A stretch of 64,000 nucleotides of DNA from Lingula anatina (taxonomy: Eukaryota; Animalia; Brachiopoda), in assembly GCA_051362555.1 (NCBI GenBank), contig CM120641.1:7564001-7628000 (forward strand), given 5' to 3'. A program made the translations under genes and the position numbers. The notes under the pieces are model-generated. The model ran no database searches. It saw only the letters and a program-made list of their open reading frames with translations, and had not been told where the DNA came from. Of the stretch, positions 1,968-13,194 are shown piece by piece; position 1 is the stretch's first letter; each line of letters opens with the position of its first letter.

Positions 1968-3352
1968 ATGGGGATGTTGGACAGCTTGGATTTTCTCGAC
2001 GATGTACGGCGCATGAATAAGCGCCAGGTGAGTTTCATTAAAAGAAATGCGACTTATTTTTGATAAACTTTCATTTTAGCCACCATGTTTAGTCATTCAA
2101 TATTGATTGTACCAAAATTTGATATCCATCTGCCTATGCCGGTTACTTGGCTCAGTGTTGTGTTAGTTCGTTGTTACACGTGTACTTATTTTGTGGATGT
2201 GGAGTGTTTTGTTTTTACCAAGTCCTACATGTCTCAATGTCCTAATGCATTATCGCTTTTGGACAGTTTTCCGTTTTCGTATACATTTTCCTTTTTGCAC
2301 CATGGTTACATTCTTCTAGGATTAGGATTCAGTGATCTGCACGTCTGCTCACCAGTACTAGTAGCAGTAACAGCTGCAGCTGGTGGGCAGACTTTTGAAT
2401 TTAGAATTAAATGGCAAAACAGCATGAACAGCAGTACCATGAAATTTCGTAGGCTACCATACATATTTACTTTTTCTGTCATGTACTAATGTTATATAAG
2501 CACGGATTTTCATGTTAGCGCTCCTATGTACTAGTACTGTGTTTGTGTTTTCTGACATGTACTATATGTGCTAATATATGAAAGATATGTGAACATATTT
2601 AAAATGACAGTGAGCTAGTGTGTCCACAGCAATACAAGGGCCCCAAATCTTTTGCTTACATGTTCCACACACCTCCTCAAGTTGCATGCTCATTAAAAGC
2701 TGAACAGTCTTGCCACTGTCAGTGCTATGAATAAGGTAAATCTCATGAACTGATAGCCAGTTATGCCACTGTAAATTATGCACCCATAAAATGCCATTTA
2801 TGGATTTCTGAATGTGCGAAGTAGGTCACATCTTGGTGAAGGATTTTGCTCATGCAGAAACAAACTCTGAAGGAGAGTGGGGGATCCCTCATCACTGTTT
2901 TCACTACCATCATTTATATGGCCTAGGTTTGTATTTTACTAATCACCCAGCATCCTACTGTAGTATACTGAATTTGCTTCATGATGGCGACTATAGCAAA
3001 TTTATTTATAATTGTTCTCACTTTTTTGTTTTTGATTTCCAGCTTTATTACCAAGTGCTAAACTTTGCCATGATAGTGTCTTCAGCTTTGATGATCTGGA
3101 AAGGTTTGATGGTTGTCACAGGGAGTGAGAGCCCTATAGTGGTAGTATTGAGGTAATAGACCAGGGATTAAGGGTGGGAATTTCTGTTTTACTATATACT
3201 TTAGATCTTTGTATTTTGTGGAATGAAAAATCAAGAGGATAAGGTTACCAGATTTTATAGTAAGTACAGTATTAACGTTAAAATGGAGATTTTAGTTTAG
3301 GTCTTAGAAGAGAAAATGTTTTTATTCTTCATTAGAATTCTCTCTTCCCATC

Positions 3353-3402
<50 letters not shown>

Positions 3403-6400
3403 ATAAAGGGGGCTTCCTGAAAGGGCTAAAAGTACTCACTCAAATCATTATCTATTTAGCATGATGTATTGTGAAAGAAAATATTTGAAGTTTCTTGAAT
3501 TCTATGAGTTTAATTTGAATAATTTATGTAGAAATATATGTTTATTGTTTATATGTACACAGTACTTGTAACTATGACTAAAATCACTGAGAAGTGATAC
3601 TCAGCAATTTTTTAAATTTTGAATGGAAGGTCTCTTAGATTGGGAAACACATCTATTTCTCTGTTGATTGTTTAAAGAATATCATAGAAACATTGTGAAA
3701 TTTATTTTTTTCAGTGGCAGCATGGAACCAGCATTCTACAGAGGAGATCTTCTCTTTCTCACCAACAATAGAGATGAGCCCATCCGTGTTGGAGAAATTG
3801 TTGTATTCAAAGTAGAAGGCCGAGAAATCCCCATAGTACATAGAGTATTAAAAGTGCATGAAAAGTGAGTATGTCACAAAAGTAAAATTAAATAAAAAGC
3901 AAAAATTAAACAAAAATTGCACTTCATATATCAAATTCCATGAATAAAGTGGGAATTTACTGCACAATTTTATTTGACTCTCTCACCATCCAGGAGTAAC
4001 ACTTTTCATCTTCATTTGACATATTGCTGTACAGTAGTTGTGCTTTCCCCAAAATATTTGTCAACCATTGTTCAGATTTTGGTAAAATAATTGGGGGAAA
4101 AGGTACATAGATAAAAGAAATTAATGTTAACAATTAATCTCTGGTGGAATTTGTTCAAGATAAAAATTTGTTTTGTAAAAATTATTTTTATTTGGATTTT
4201 ATGTAAAGATGATTTTTATGAAAAGAAGGAATAAATATGTGCACAATCAAGATAGGCATACACCTGAAAGTAGCCTTTCTGGATATAACTTACCATTGGA
4301 TTCTTACTCGTGTCATCCACGTCCCTTGTATCTGTCCTTTAAACCAATATAAAAGAAGGATTACATGTGGAATTGAACCTAACAGCTAAATGTTTGTTAC
4401 TATAAGAAAACCAAAGAAATGCATGTCCCTTAATTTCTTGCTAACAAGTGTATCAGGCTATCATCCATCAATATCTTGTTGTCTTTACAGAGAGGATGGA
4501 ACAGTTAAATTTTTAACAAAAGGTGACAATAATTCAGTAGATGACAGAGGACTGTATGCCCCTGGACAGTTATGGCTTCACAAGAAAGATGTTGTTGGAA
4601 GAGCTAGAGGGTAGGTATACTTGCAGCTGGTTGAGAGGTTTCAGATTGCTATAGATGTGCATGATTGTGACAAAGTTAAAGTATTTCAAAACGTGCCATA
4701 CGGTAATGTGCCAAGCATTTCGACCGGCCCAGTCAATCCGACCAAAAAAATTATATTATAAAATTAATTTTTCTGGGCTCAAACATTTAGTCCATACGTC
4801 AAAATCAGGCGACAGAATTTTTTTCTTGTTCCGATTGTTCGACCACATCGTCGGCAAGACTCGGTAAATTTTCAAGCCAGTCATATAGATGCTGCATGCC
4901 GGGCCCTTTGTCCTTTCAATAGCTCTCGTCAATGAGGAAGAAACTATTAATTGAAGATCTAATCTGGAAGCATGACTTACCTGTCATTTTCTTTGTCCCC
5001 AATGACAAAATAGTGTTATAGACATACAATTTGTGCTAATTAAGCAGACTTGCCCTCGCTGACTGATTCATCACGCCCGTAACTGGGGAAGGGGAGGGGT
5101 TAAAAAAGGTCCATTCTTGATGAAACCAAATATCGACAGTGGGTAGAATACGTCGTAAACACCTTCATATAGACCATATATAGCGTTTGCTAGCAATAAA
5201 AACTTTGGGAAGAATAAGCAATTTATTTTCAAGTTTGATTGAAATATATATGCAGATGGGGAAACGTTCTTGAAGTCAACACCGCAAGATCTTACATTTA
5301 CTACAATCGACGGGATCAGCGGGATTGACCACCCAGACTTCTTGGCGCCAAATACCACGCGCTGTCAAAATCTGACGAACACGTGTAGCTGTTCACCTAC
5401 ATGGATAACTGATTTGTCAACAATAAAAATGACGTCTTCCTTAACTCCATGAGAGCTTCATAGAGAGTTCCACTGGATATTTACGTTACCTGTGAGTCAC
5501 TTTTTATTTCCCCAGATGCATGAAATGTTGATGATATTTAGCGTAATCCACGAATAACTCCATTCCTGTGACCCCCCTCCCCCAAAATGGGACCGTCTTC
5601 ATTAACACGTGGTTTGCGCTATGCTAGACCAGACCAGATAAGACCAGTCTCATTTCTGCATGTGCTCAATGATTCTCGCGTCAAATTATAAATGCACTTG
5701 TTTTGTGAAAATTATGGCAATTAAATGCTTATTTTACGTTCGGGTTGTATCAGTGGGGTTTTCAATATGCACCGTGGTTTGTGCACAGCGAGAGTATATA
5801 ATTAAGAAAATCGGAAGAGTGCCAGCAAGATAGGCCTACTGTATGTCTATCGGCACAGGTAGGCTCCGTATTTTGCCTTTTCTCAATATGTTTTAATATG
5901 ACATGCTTTTTAAATAAAATACTTATAAGTAATTTGAAGTTACACTGAATTCCGTTTGAGTACCAGTTGGTATTCTTTGATACGGGTGATTGAATTTTCT
6001 TCGGAAGTACGTCTACGCCTCGACGCTGAGCAAGCCTTGCGGGTTGAAAACAACTTATCTCAGACTGGTAAAAAATTTCAATTCGGTTGATTTCAGTTGT
6101 CATATTAAAATTCAAATAAGGCATACGTAGAGCACATAACTAGTTTAAGTCTACTAAAGCTACCGGTTTCAAATATAAGTGACCGGCCTTTGTTTACAAC
6201 ACCTGTCTCTGGGGAAATACTCGTCCCACTCGTGAAGCGCATCATGAAAATGATCGTAGGTGAGGGAAATATATAATTAGAAATTATAATTGTCATTTTT
6301 TATAATGTTAAGTCATGTTAGCACATATTGTACACAGCAAAATAAAATTTTAAAAGGAGGATAAAACAAGCCTGAAACACCTGTTAGTTGAAAATTGCGG

Positions 6401-9400
6401 CTTATCTTGCGTAACACTTCCGGTAAAATGCAATACTTCCGGAAAGATGGACATTTTGGCAGATGCCCCTAACAATCCGACGATATCAAAGGTTTCCATT
6501 TGCTGTATTTTAATCAATTCGACCAAACTGACATTTCCATGAAATTAATTAATTAATCTTGGTCGAATTGTTTGGCATATTACCGTATTCTATTTATTTC
6601 TGTATGAACAAAATGTTAAACTAAATAAAATTTGAAGAATTAGTGAGGTCAGTTTAAGGAATGGCTGGATACATGAAAAACCATTTGCTTTTTACAAAAA
6701 ATAAATAAACGTAAAAACTCTTGTAATATCATTTAAAATAATTTAGTCAGCTTATATTTATATGTAAAAAAACATCAGAAATCATATCTGTCCTTTTGTT
6801 CAGTCAAAAACCTGTTTTTGCAGTGTAGCTGACAAAAATAGAAAACTTTGGGCCTTAAGCTGTTGTTATTTGCAGATGAATGTTGAAAAAGATAATATCC
6901 CCTTTCTTCCACAAACCCAAATCTACAAGTAAATGCCAATTTTAAAAGCTTGCTGCATCTCTTAATGATTTCTTGAATAACTCTGAAATTACTCATCAGA
7001 ATTGTGTAATAGGTGTTTATGCAAATTTACCTTAAAGTTACATGAGTGTTTAATATATATTAAACACTCATGTAACTTTAAGGTAAATTATGTGTTGTTG
7101 TCTCAGAGAAATCAAAATTGTCCTCAAAGGTATGCAAGTTGAATTCAAGTGTCAGTGAAATGCTTATGAGGACACGTTTCATTTGCGGTGAACCAAACCA
7201 GGTATTAAGTTGACTTGGGGTCAAACCCAGTAGTGAATAGGCACAGACTGCTCCAGACCTTCTTTTCTTACCATATTTCTGAAATGAAACACCTTAAGAA
7301 ATATATTTGTATGTGTGCGTCTGTAATTTTTCTCCCTGAGGGGTATATAAAAAAGCAGTGGGGACAGGTATTGAAAAACAGGTTCAAGTTGAAAGTTTCT
7401 TATTGCTCAGTTATTTTTACCTGGTGAACAAGGAAGGAACTTTCTTTCACAATGCAGGTACATGACAAATAGCTCTCACTTTTTTATGTCATTGTGCATG
7501 CAATTTGAAAAAAATTTGAACAGCTACAAGATTTTTTTTTGATAAATTAGATTTTTGCTATATTTTTTTTAGGAAAAGCAGAAAATTCAGATTTTTTTCA
7601 TACATGCATAAATGGGCACAGATAATAAAAGATTTGTAAATTGATACAAACTTTTCTTTTTGAATAGATCATGATGTTCTTATATTTGCCCATTGTTTAT
7701 ATTGTCAGGTCATGCTAGTTGTTTTTAATTGGTGGGAATTGAAGCACAATTTTCTAACAATTTTTTGCTTCACTAACTTGTTTTCTTTGTCAGGCCATGT
7801 AAGGTTCTAATAAAAGTCCTGTCATTGTCCTTTTATTTCATCTTCATAGGATGTTGAATATGTATTTTAACTTTCAGTTCTGTGTGATCTGAAAGGCTCA
7901 CAGTGGCTTAGTAGCAAATGCTGTTAAATATTTGGTAGTAATAATAATCACCTTAGTATCAAGAGGTTTTCAGTAGATGGATAGATGGGGTTTAACAGAA
8001 TTTTAACAACCTTTTTTGTTTAAGCTCTGGCCCCATTATAATTGTCATGATCAAATGTTTGATCAATAGCAGAGCATCAGTGCACAGTTGCACTCCACTC
8101 ACTCAGGTGGACCAATGCTGGGTTGGCAACCATCTTATTTCTGAATAGAGATTCTCAGAATCATTTTTTATTTTTCTTCTTGCAAATGTATTTTCATAAT
8201 GTTTAAAGACCATACCAGTCTGTTCTTTTCACTTCACCATGTGGAATTTCTACATGGTCAGTCCCATTTCTTTACAAGCATAATGAGATCAGCAATTTCC
8301 ATGTCAGTCAGCCAATAAATGTCAACTTCTATAAATATATGTTGGTAAACTGCTCACAATCATTTTATCAGTTTCTTTGAGCTTCATTAAATAATTGCAT
8401 GTTAATTTGTCATTTTTTTATACTAAATTGCAAGTTTGTGTGATTGAGAGAGTGTGTATGTTCATTTTTGCAGGTTTTCACAGGAAAATTATAAAGGTGC
8501 ATATATTGCTGTAATGCACATTTCGAGTTTTTATTTTTACGGAATCAGCCTTTTTCTGTATTTTTTTTATTACCGCACATTGATATCATTTTTAAGCATG
8601 ACATGGATTTTTTTCAACAAGTTAATACAAGGTACATCACATGGTGGAATACTATTACATACATTCACGTTGTATTAGATATATGCAGCCTGTCTTAAAC
8701 TGAACTTAATGGTATCTTAAATTTCGCTGGTATTTCCTTTCTTGTAGATATCTCCCTTTTATAGGCATAGTTACTATTCTAATGAATGACTACCCTAAGC
8801 TGAAGGTGGGTAACTGTTGATCATTTTTCAGCTGACATGTTCATTCATTTTCTGTTCTCGATGTTCTTAATATTATGTGTTTTCTGCTTTGTTGTTTTTA
8901 GATTTTTACCTTATGTTGGGTATGCAACAATTCTTATGAATGACCATCCACAAGTGAAGGTATGTTTATGTGCTTGAGACTTTGGAAAATAAAAATAATG
9001 CATGTGCACTAAAGATTATGTAAACCTGTTGATCACATTAATGAATTAACATTTATACTTGTTTTTGATTATTTACAAAAAGAAGTTGAATTAATTATTT
9101 GTAATACAGGATTTTTTGTTAGTTATTTGTGCCAATTGTATTATTGGCTGATTTATTTAGATTTTTACTTGTGTATTTATTTATAATAAAAAAGGTGTTT
9201 ACTACATATGTGGCATGTGAGATTGCACATGACAAAGTTTCATGGATTACTCTGTTTTTGTTTGTAAGATATGTAAAAGTTCAATGTGCTACCTTTTGGA
9301 CTTCCTTTATCTACTTTGAAGTTTTCCCTCTTTCTTTATCATAATTTAATTGCAACATTGGGTGTCTGATTCCCCATGACTTCTACTTTTCTTTTGTGAA

Positions 9401-9909
9401 ACAGGCTTTTGAAATGTTTTGCTACTTGGGATAGGGCATCCTCCCTTTTTCTTGATTCATTGAAAAATACATAGGGGTGTTGATTTAGGTCTTGATCCCC
9501 ACCCGTGTTAAGTTCTTATAGGCCAAATGACAGTGAACCATGTAATGTTGCAAGTGCACTTCTGCCTGAGTGATAATTTATTTTGGCAAAACTGATCTTG
9601 TTACAGCCAGTTAATACCATGTGCTATTTTAATCTGAAAGCTGTTGACGAAAAGAGATTTTTGCACATAGTGTACATTTCAGAGAAAAAAGGTGTAAAAG
9701 CACTATTTGTACCTTTTGAACTTCTGTGATTTGTAGCTTGTTTAGTTAATTAAGGTATTTACATACAGACACAAAGTGCATTGATTTTGTAGTGTTAAAT
9801 GAATTGATTACATCTGAAAACAAATAATGATTTCTTTATTTTTTACATTATTTTTCAGTATGCAATATTGGCATGTCTTGGACTGTTTGTGCTGATACAC
9901 AGAGAATGA
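1968..9909 (+). CDS. SEC11: Signal peptidase complex catalytic subunit SEC11 (182 aa); exons 1968-2027, 3043-3152, 3715-3864, 4491-4610, [8748-8805 or 8902-8959], 9859-9909
   Basis: Spliced translation [68 protein letters not shown]...IPIVHRV.../...[16 protein letters not shown]...VGRARG/.../[16 protein letters not shown] matches SEC11A/C, including the catalytic Ser (SGSMEP), His (IVHRV) and KGDNN motifs. All introns are GT-AG with matching phases. Confidence 0.97.
3356..3400. repeat. (TG)n microsatellite
   Basis: Pure TG run in SEC11 intron 2. Confidence 0.95.
4701..6585. mobile_element. Non-autonomous TA-flanked TIR DNA transposon (Tc1/mariner-pogo-like), copy 1, about 1.9 kb
   Basis: TA|CGGTAATGTGCCAAGCATTTCGACC ... 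GGTCGAATTGTTTGGCATATTACCG|TA, an imperfect 25-bp TIR. A highly similar second copy starts at 60588. No transposase ORF seen. Confidence 0.85.
7024..7089. repeat. Perfect 66-bp spacerless palindrome in SEC11 intron 4
   Basis: aatttaccttaaagttacatgagtgtttaatatatattaaacactcatgtaactttaaggtaaatt equals its own reverse complement. Confidence 0.95.
8748..8805 (+). CDS. SEC11: SEC11 alternative exon 5a (G)[19 protein letters not shown]
   Basis: 58 nt, AG/GT bounded, phase 2 in and phase 0 out; homologous to vertebrate [19 protein letters not shown]. Confidence 0.9.
8902..8959 (+). CDS. SEC11: SEC11 alternative exon 5b (G)[19 protein letters not shown]
   Basis: 58 nt, AG/GT bounded, same phases as 5a, stop-free and paralogous to 5a. 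Including both exons shifts the frame. Confidence 0.85.
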
Positions 9910-10479
9910 CATCCATCTTTAAACAACTTGGAATTGGAGGTCAGGAGCAGAGAGATTATTCATTTCATACAAATTTTTGTACAAAATTAAAAGGATAGAA
10001 ATTTTAAAGGGCACGCGGCAAGCAGTATCACTGGATACTATAAAGGAGTTGATAGATTGTTGTGAATGGAAACTGTCAGAGGATGAAGGAAAGAACGTAA
10101 AGTACTCTGAGGTTGAGGAAACAGATTAAGCTGTGGGGACCTTGCCTCGACCTTAGTTGATCCTTAATGTTTGTACACAAACAGAAAACTATCCAAAAGA
10201 CCAAAAGGTCCTACGTGCCACTTTAGTGCAGCACAGATTTCGCGCCACTTCATACAATATTACACTTTGATAAATTGCAATTAATCAAATGTATCAACTT
10301 TTCACATTGTACCCAAGCATTCCTTATCGGATTTAGAAAAGGTAATCGTTTTAAAAATTGAATAAGGGCAAGATAAATAGCCTCTTTATTTTGCTGTAGT
10401 ACAAAGGCTTGAAATTTAACTTCGAGCAGCTGAAAGATTGAGAAGTGAACTTCTAGATTATGTTTATTTATGTCAACTT

Positions 10480-10485: not shown

Positions 10486-12268
10486 ACTTTTTAGTAAGGT
10501 AAAGCGTTGTTTTTGTAGTATAATTCAATTATATCGAATTGCAAGGTCTTGCAAGGCTTTACAAGGTGACTTTGTTTGCTAACGTAGTAGATTTGTTACA
10601 CAGGTGGTGCTTGATTCCGTGTCGTGATGAAAACGGATTGGTAAGCAGCCAAGAGCAGCGCGTTTTTGCACGTGCGCCCACACGCAAGCACACAGACACG
10701 GCATTGATTAAAATTATAACTGAGCAAGGTCTGAAATGAAATAAACGAAAGAAAAAGGCTGTGTGCTCCGAATTTTAAATTATGGAGGTGGTGACCTTTA
10801 ATTTGCAAACTTAATTAGAAAGTGAAATTAAGCTTCAGTTTCAGACCCCAGATAGTGATTTTCCCTAACATTTACTAGAACCTCACCTGAGTTAACCCAT
10901 GGTTTTATTTTTCAAATCTTGGGAGCAAAAAATGGGAAGATGGAATCGCATGCTTGGTGTGATGATTGCATTGATACAGAACAGCATAATTTTGACCATG
11001 GTAGTATAACAATTGTGTGGTACTTGATATCGTATCATAACCTAAGGTATTACAGTAATCTTTCAATAGGCTATCGTAAAACGAGTAGTTATTGCAAGGA
11101 CATTCTTGGCTAAGGACTTCATGGCCGATTATATGATACGCAATGGTGATATTTTTCATCATCAAGATACTGAGGGCAATAAACCTATGTATTACAGCGC
11201 ATAAATAAAATGATTGAAATTATGGAGAAATGTCCCCGTTAATAAAATAGCACGATGTTACTAATACACTACATGTTCATTTAAGTATACAGATCGTGAT
11301 GATTTTATCACAAATGGACTCTATGAATGGTTTAATCAACAGAACTAATACCCATTGTAGATTATCGTTATAATGTTGAATTTAGGAAGTAAATTATCTT
11401 TGACTCAAACTTAAAAAATTAAGCGGTTTACCTATATCCTAGTTTGAATAAGGAAAGTCGAGCGGGTGACAGTTCTTTAAAATCCTTTCAACATACGTGC
11501 TATTTCTCACTTTTTCGTCTTCATCTGTCCGGACAATTGTCAAATAATTCGTAGAAAAGTGGCGATAAATTAACCATGCCTTAATGACAGAAAACCGATA
11601 TGACTAAACGATCGAAAATGATTTTGAAAGAAATATTATCAACCTCACAACTGGCACGGAGTTCTAATCTCGAAAAACCTGAATTGTGATTGCTTTCACA
11701 TCTTTGCTAACCATACCGTTCTCCTTCTTCACGAGGAGATAAAAGTACCATCCAACTTGAATGTCCTATTTTAAAAGGCGAACATAATTTGAGCCTGTTG
11801 CAAATATTGGCTATGTGTTATCTCTTCGTTATCTGGATTCTCCTTTTCTTGTTGGACGTCTTCAATTTGTTATTCAGCTTATGCGCCATGCCAATATTTA
11901 CCAAGCTGTCGAGATACTCTGTACCCTGGTGAAGAGCTGTTTATAACCCATGATTAAACATTTAAAAGTCTCGTAAAATTTTAATGGCTATACAAGTATA
12001 AATTTTTTTTGTTACATTTTGGGTGACTTGTTAAATGGAGGTTACGAAAGGAAAGGTTTAATTCCTGGATGATGATGAGGTCACATTGTTGTTCTTTATC
12101 ACCCTCTCGTCCCTCAAGTTGTGTATTCTTATCACGTCAGTCTATTGGATAGGTAACTGGTCCCGTATTATTGGAGGGCGTCAAAAGCGTACTGATACCA
12201 CCAACACCGGCACGCGGGACGGGCCACTGCCACGGAACACGTACAAAGAAAAGTTTCTTTGGGTGGCC

Positions 12269-12593
12269 ATGGCGAGGGATAAGTTCGAATTTCATGACCC
12301 CGGCACAATTGGTTCCTCTGAGAGTTTTCTGTTCAACGGATCGAGGAAATCGAAAGGATGCCACGTCAGTGTCGTTTCTGGGATTATTCTGGTGTTTCTG
12401 GCCATTGCCATCACGGTAGGGGTTGGGTTGATAGTGCATTTCGCTGGCGATAGAGTAGTGTGTAACTGTGGCACAGGAACTGACGGAAATGGAGGGGATA
12501 ATGACAGACAAATAGGAGTAACATCGAAAACGTCACCGCCCCCTATTACAGAAACAACGTTAGATCCAGATACGAAGCAATGTATCGCAAACT
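12269..12593 (+). CDS. ANPEP: APN-like gene exon 1: cytoplasmic tail, signal-anchor TM helix ([27 protein letters not shown]) and Cys/Thr-containing stalk
   Basis: GCCATGG Kozak ATG at 12269, basic residues before a hydrophobic helix, and a phase-1 GTAAG donor at 12594 that joins in frame to the acceptor at 20768 (…[14 protein letters not shown]…). Confidence 0.85.
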
Positions 12594-13194
12594 GTAAGCA
12601 AAATTTACTTTTTAAAAACCATTTATCTTTGATGAATAAAAGTAAGATATTGATAATGTAAGAAGTCGATGGGAGGTTTAGGTAGTAGAGGGAAAAATTA
12701 TGATTTTGTGTCTCGATTTCTCGCTTTCGCATATCTGCGCAGTTGTAGGAAAGTTCGATCTAGATAATATTATCCATGTTTGTTTAAGCATACCTTATTG
12801 GTACTCTCTGACCATAGGGGCCACTAGTTGTCTGTAAAAGAATTATTGTATCGGTCCGCACTTTAATTCTGTAGAATATTTTGGAGGCCCCTGATAGTAG
12901 CCGGTCCCCAATTGGGCCGTGTCGTAAGATTCCAGGATGTGCCCCGTGTAATTGAATTATTGCTGCTAAAAATTCGATTTGTAAAACTAAGATGTGGCTG
13001 TACTGGTGTAGTCTTCCGACTCCCGAAAACATTGAATCTACGTCTTTTATTTGAATTAGTGTTAGACGGTGTATCGGCTGCCTTGCGAATCCAGCCTGGT
13101 GTCCTGGATGATAGCCGGTTTATATACCGAGAATTTGTTCTTAGGCCAAGACAACGTCAGTATTTGCAGTTTAGCTATCTATGTATAGCAGCCA

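Follow-up and report, generated by a model that had tools for sequence, protein, structure and literature searches.

In the brachiopod Lingula anatina, the tandem duplication of exon 5 in the signal peptidase gene SEC11 is real, and nearly every sampled mRNA contains one of the two copies, exon 5b. The reading that we favor, with a probability of roughly 0.6, is that 5b encodes the housekeeping form of the protein and the neighboring copy, exon 5a, a rare and likely cell-type-limited form, the whole being a lineage-limited case of tandem exon substitution. The asymmetry between the copies is unexpected, in that the derived 5b does the housekeeping while the canonical-like 5a is nearly silent.

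The SEC11 gene consists of six coding exons on the + strand at positions 1968-9910 of the window, i.e., the 64 kb stretch of DNA that was analyzed (Table 1). The protein spliced with 5b is identical to XP_013408555.1, annotated as SEC11A of Lingula anatina, and matches human SEC11A (7p2p_A) over its full length (phmmer E=4e-99, residues 6-182). This full-length similarity, together with the retention of the catalytic core and the gate residues (Lingula W39/T156, equivalent to the human Trp36/Thr153 gate), identifies the gene as a SEC11. XP_013408555.1 carries no isoform label whereas some other records of the same protein list do, from which we infer that the public Lingula annotation holds the 5b form only.

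Table 1. Exons of Lingula SEC11 and the intron separating the two copies of exon 5, in window coordinates.
Feature	Positions	Strand	Evidence or remark
SEC11 coding exon 1, from ATG	1968..2027	+	Spliced 5b protein = XP_013408555.1
SEC11 exon 2	3043..3152	+	RNA-read loose ends before 3713 fit its 3' end
SEC11 exon 3	3715..3864	+	3864>4491 junction in 4/4 runs (X1, X4, X7, X8)
SEC11 exon 4	4491..4610	+	4610>8902 junction: 64/31/48/52 reads (X1/X4/X7/X8)
Exon 5a, canonical-like bowsprit-helix exon, intact	8748..8805	+	Essentially unspliced in sampled RNA
Intron between 5a and 5b, 96 nt	8806..8901	+	68-nt AG-free zone with branch candidates
Exon 5b, derived copy, expressed exon	8902..8959	+	Junctions 4610>8902 and 8959>9859; peptide in XP_013408555.1
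SEC11 last coding exon, C-terminal CTS helix and stop	9859..9910	+	8959>9859 in 556 reads, 8 runs

The two copies are 58 nt apiece, enter in phase 2 and exit in phase 0, and both retain intact splice sites, with TAG acceptors and the donors AAG/gtgggt (5a) and AAG/gtatgt (5b). Either exon alone gives a 182-aa open reading frame ending at a common stop codon, and the inclusion of both or of neither shifts the frame. Identity between the copies amounts to 38/58 nt and 11/19 amino acids, so that 8/19 residues are changed, and five further codons differ at synonymous positions only. Scored with a family profile built in part on the 5b peptide, 5a reaches 83 and 5b 73 (family range 70-90), and both strands of the 64 kb window gave no third exon-5 match above 25; the second exon-5 copy is no chance match. 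A third exon-like acceptor at ~9161 was rejected, sharing just 8 nt and having no profile match. Tandem exon substitution involves neighboring homologous exons that agree in phase and fit the reading frame in length, as these two do. A preliminary description of this DNA, which had reported two 58-nt exons 96 nt apart with identical phases and good splice sites, was exact in both coordinates and peptides; its term "mutually exclusive" is an interpretation, as the RNA displays 5b alone.

The use of the two exons was assessed in eight of nine listed Lingula RNA runs from three studies, covering 6-30% of each run, with a junction listing threshold of three reads and a second read set (X2, X3, X5, X9) taken at likeness 90. 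Exon 4 is joined to 5b in 373 reads from the eight runs, including reads with exon-4 letters before 5b in X2 (60), X3 (49), X5 (19), and X9 (50), and to 5a in at most one putative read. The downstream junction of 5b, 8959>9859, is likewise present throughout (X1 141, X4 19, X7 51, X8 42, X2 121, X3 107, X5 19, X9 56 reads). No junction of 5a reached three reads in any of the eight runs, and neither did the joints 8805>8902 and 4610>9859, a result that says little while 5a is unused. Depth over 5a is 0 in X2 and X3, and the first 8 nt of the exon (bin ending 8755) have depth 0 in X1, X4, and X7; in X8, the same bin has a depth of 0.04, equivalent to 8-9 nt, as one putative exon 4-5a read would give. 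The share of 5a is therefore at most 1/374 exon-4 junction reads, with a 95% upper bound of about 1.5% that treats mates as independent, so that the true bound is looser. The preliminary description had announced two catalytic subunits made by a single gene, which as an established finding is not sustained by these counts (4610>8748 at most 1 versus 4610>8902 373 reads), and its suggestion that the signal peptidase complex (SPC) isoforms are possibly specific to secretory tissue gained no support.

In X5 and X9, about two reads over 5a continue from the upstream intron and are thus unspliced, and those of X9 run through 5a into the intervening intron according to the depth profile. Since the unspliced reads of these two other samples cross from the upstream intron into 5a, other animals have the exon at this location too, a finding that speaks against a faulty assembly in which two alleles or a paralogue were merged in tandem. 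The heterozygosity of the Lingula genome, given as 1.6% in the available text of PMC4595640, and a search for SEC11 copies that covered the 64 kb window leave some room for such a merger, but 66% nucleotide identity is far beyond allelic and we regard this explanation as barely plausible.

Between 5a and 5b, synonymous differences affect 9.5/12.5 sites (pS 0.76, saturated) and nonsynonymous differences 10.5/44.5 sites (pN 0.24; Fisher p=6e-4). Because synonymous sites are saturated and pN is only 0.24, the duplication is old and both copies were for a long time under purifying selection, and the earlier suggestion that both exons are under selection is thereby borne out for the past. A purely RNA-level reason for keeping 5a, as decoy splice sites or as a regulatory element for the splicing of 5b, would fit with its transcription in the pre-mRNA (the unspliced reads of X5 and X9) and its position 96 nt from the used exon; however, conservation at the amino-acid level with synonymous sites left free is not what an RNA role predicts, and local RNA folding is no better than that of shuffles (z 0.64), making this explanation very improbable.

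The time for which 5a could have been without constraint was estimated by simulating neutral drift. The probability that 5a stays intact and family-like is 0.42 at 0.02, 0.12 at 0.05, 0.015 at 0.10, and 1e-4 at 0.20 substitutions per site, so that selection on the protein acted on 5a over almost the whole period that followed the duplication. As drift soon breaks the exon in the simulation, any loss of constraint would be very recent relative to the duplication, and 5a is either selected still or was silenced very recently. The second of these alternatives amounts to exon replacement, in which both exons were once used, 5b took over, and 5a persists as a recently silenced, undecayed relic. The 0-1/374 junction reads for 5a and the single named isoform fit this course of events, and so does the extension of the silence to a diverged population. 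The reads of X7 and X8 show at least 16 fixed differences from the window in the 390 nt of 3' UTR at 9911-10300 (at least 4%), which suggests that X7-X9 represent a distinct population or a cryptic species under one label. X7-X9 also differ at four positions in 8725-8737, just 5' of the 5a acceptor, exceeding the other runs. Since the ~4% diverged X7 and X8 are also without 5a, any silencing would predate the population split, and silencing before that split is still compatible with an intact 5a, as decay over half of that divergence would leave the exon intact with P ~0.4. On the other hand, the two copies have existed for long enough to reach synonymous saturation, and of this history only the final ~0.05-0.07 substitutions per site would be available for the loss; the splice sites of 5a are, moreover, undamaged. 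We consider exon replacement a serious possibility, if a rather unlikely one, and readings other than a rare alternative or a recent relic improbable.

The divergence of the two peptides is distributed unevenly. Among 219 homologue peptides (from 277 proteins), 5b carries several rare residues (A8 and H15 in none, Y7 and Q17 in 3 each, V18 in 4), and the sole rare residue of 5a is F4 (3/219). With metagenome loci added (81 distinct peptides), all 5a residues occur in the family and, of the 5b residues, only A8 is absent. A Gly-Tyr-Ala variant is present in a SEC11 paralogue on the metagenome locus L054. Compared with eight named invertebrates, 5a differs at 3-5/19 positions and 5b at 4-7/19, the mean exon-5 difference among those eight being 1.4 positions and the rest of the protein differing from Lingula at 9-26/153 positions. 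Judged from these comparisons, 5a and 5b have both evolved faster than usual. Relative to the Lineus peptide, the changes of 5a fall in positions 1-5 and those of 5b in positions 7-18.

The splice sites themselves give no reason for the neglect of 5a. The donors of 5a and 5b both match 8/9 consensus positions, their acceptors both have 17/22 pyrimidines, and these values lie within or above the range of the SEC11 constitutive exons. As the sites of 5a match the consensus like those of 5b, visibly broken sites do not explain its skipping, and 5a is probably passed over by repression or competition. With both exons included, translation would stop 16 nt upstream of the last junction, and with both skipped, in the last exon. 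By the 50-nt rule of nonsense-mediated decay, stops so near or beyond the last junction escape. Because such decay would probably spare both frameshifted products, exclusion between 5a and 5b, if there is any, is likely set during splicing.

The short intron between the copies offers a candidate for such exclusion. Its 68-nt AG-free zone contains branch candidates (yUnAy) at 8832, 8840, 8844, and 8867; the CTGAC at 8832-8836, to which the preliminary description had drawn attention, is present and opens the zone, its A being intron nt 30, i.e., 30 nt from the 5a donor. As three further yUnAy candidates share the AG-free zone with CTGAC, the latter is one putative branch point among four. The arrangement resembles steric exclusion of the alpha-tropomyosin type, as presented in the available text of PMC4165533, in its short intron, in the distance of 30 nt between the CTGAC A and the upstream donor, and in the AG-free U-rich tract after CTGAC, but differs in that a conventional branch candidate, 32 nt from the 5b acceptor and 65 nt from the 5a donor, is also present. 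Docking/selector pairing was sought in the Lingula locus alone, and none of the duplexes beat controls; for the best two (-18.6 and -16.3 kcal/mol), 5% and 55% of 40 controls did as well. One 10-nt word occurs 3' of both donors (8814-8823 and 9026-9035), a coincidence seen in 1.9% of random pairs and noticed post hoc; it is a duplication remnant, a shared splicing element, or chance.

Exon 5 aligns to residues 145-163 of human SEC11A (7p2p_A), a segment described, in the available text of the structural work, as the amphiphilic bowsprit helix on the membrane surface, linked by a conserved proline to the C-terminal CTS helix (bioRxiv 10.1101/2020.11.11.378711). The preliminary description had likewise called it a membrane-proximal helix ahead of the C-terminal helix. 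The helix contains the gatekeeper Thr153, which sits where the h-region of the bound signal peptide passes into its c-region (PMC13385932, available text), and the corresponding gatekeeper Thr (Lingula T156) and the helix-breaking Pro are kept in both 5a and 5b. In the expressed 5b helix, the gatekeeper Thr has Ala as a neighbor, and the helix break reads His-Pro-Gln-Val. Averaged over positions 4-15, hydropathy comes to 1.40 for 5a and 0.19 for 5b (family -0.07 to 1.38), which puts the two helices near opposite ends of the family range. Any consequence of this difference for membrane thinning or the choice of substrates is a matter of prediction.

Exons of 58 nt with the same boundaries occur widely, since a metagenome scan by a degenerate exon-5-plus-donor pattern returned 99 loci with 44 exon types, of which 31 have an AG acceptor. 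A lone exon-5 duplicate was found in none of the 29 other AG-acceptor exon types flanked on each side by 250 nt or more, one type instead having the whole gene in tandem copies. Second exon-5 matches in the metagenome loci were rejected as whole-gene copies (L045/L046, L054) or as a weak non-exon match (L060, score 30). L054:229-2103 carries adjacent whole SEC11 genes, two divergent paralogues of which one lacks the intron before exon 5, and L045/L046 are near-identical tandem whole SEC11 copies in a eukaryote. Among 388 homologue proteins, a set of 90%-identity representatives that is able to hide an isoform and that includes only the listed members of the 22-member cluster with XP_013408555.1 (7 others lying outside), the 5b motifs occur in XP_013408555.1 only and the N-terminal hexapeptide of 5a in none. 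The sole protein with two exon-5 motifs, a contamination-flagged 346-aa record, was rejected, its two copies being identical. The duplication looks lineage-limited in this comparison set, which is without another brachiopod or a phoronid. The preliminary description had proposed that its claim would fall if one exon proved never to be spliced in and to be absent or degenerate in relatives; half of this is observed, in that 5a is essentially unspliced in these samples and the other eukaryotes searched gave no duplicate, yet the Lingula 5a shows no degeneration.

Lingula SEC11 is similar to tandem duplicated exon substitution as presented in the available text of PMC9741552 and PMC4165533, with adjacent homologous internal exons that agree in length and phase, differ by conservative substitutions, retain the core residues, and cause a frameshift on double inclusion or skipping. 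Unlike those systems, only the use of 5b is demonstrated here and the duplicate is seen in Lingula alone. In humans, three of every four tandem-exon isoforms show tissue specificity, often for nervous tissue (PMC9741552, available text), and as bulk samples would dilute isoforms of that type, the low 5a counts fit the reading of 5a as a rarely used alternative. Against that reading stand the ratio of at most 1/374 junction reads across eight runs that include a ~4% diverged population, the unlabelled single Lingula record and the 0/388 count of the 5a hexapeptide, and the failure to find docking/selector pairing above controls or a relative with both copies. The main text of PMC9741552, as far as available, holds no mention of SEC11, and the available text of PMC12931387 deals with a different event, the skipping of an exon that lies 5' of the coding sequence in human. 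No published description of the SEC11 exon-5 duplication was found, although supplements, subscription papers, and splicing databases (MetazExp) could list one; the duplication is apparently undescribed, and its splicing mechanism is of a familiar kind.

Among other features of the window, intron 4 of SEC11 harbors an element of ~1.9 kb (4698-6588) with 28-nt terminal inverted repeats (4698-4725/6561-6588, 89% complementary), without a long open reading frame and with RNA-read loose ends at both termini, which looks like a multi-copy non-autonomous DNA transposon. The same intron contains a perfect 66-nt palindrome (7024-7089), which may be either a genuine inserted hairpin or an error of assembly. 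On the + strand at 12231-12600, an exon that looks coding by eye encodes one hydrophobic segment close to its beginning and thereby resembles the N-terminal part of a type II membrane protein, here of the next gene.

In the favored reading, 5b would supply the housekeeping signal-peptidase subunit and 5a would replace it in some unsampled cell type or stage. Exon 5a would be selected still, since a neutral exon would soon gain a stop, an indel, a splice-site change, or a residue unseen in the family, and it would be bypassed through regulation or competition, with double inclusion likely blocked during splicing, possibly via a branch point 30 nt from the 5a donor. Both subunits would have a common catalytic core and gate residue and be unlike in the hydrophobicity of the bowsprit helix, a difference that could tune membrane thinning or the handling of the h-region rather than cleavage chemistry. 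A more far-reaching proposal, which we hold to be doubtful, is that two SPCs arise from one gene by a swap of the bowsprit/gatekeeper helix, with a lineage-specific, more polar helix for all bulk secretion and a hydrophobic, ancestral-type helix for rare cells; that these would be, for example, neurosecretory cells with a different signal-peptide preference is an equally tentative suggestion.

Human SEC11A and SEC11C offer a parallel in providing two possible catalytic subunits for one complex, and the catalytic core, the Trp36/Thr153 gate, and the helix-breaking proline are preserved in Lingula (bioRxiv 10.1101/2020.11.11.378711; PMC13385932; available text of both). Unlike the Lingula exon copies, they are whole-gene paralogues that differ mostly at their termini (bioRxiv 10.1101/2020.11.11.378711, available text), and the convergence with vertebrates that had been proposed is an analogy only. 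In the same structural papers, as far as their text is available, the reason for the retention of both SEC11 paralogues in vertebrates is left open, as is the contribution of the bowsprit helix to signal-peptide selection (bioRxiv 10.1101/2020.11.11.378711; PMC13385932). If 5a is used, Lingula would have two natural variants differing in the bowsprit helix alone, and if the helix swap is true, it would be a natural single-helix exchange testing the role of that helix. Even with 5a silent, the expressed Lingula enzyme shows that a near-invariant animal helix tolerates Ala beside the Thr gatekeeper and His-Pro-Gln-Val at the break.
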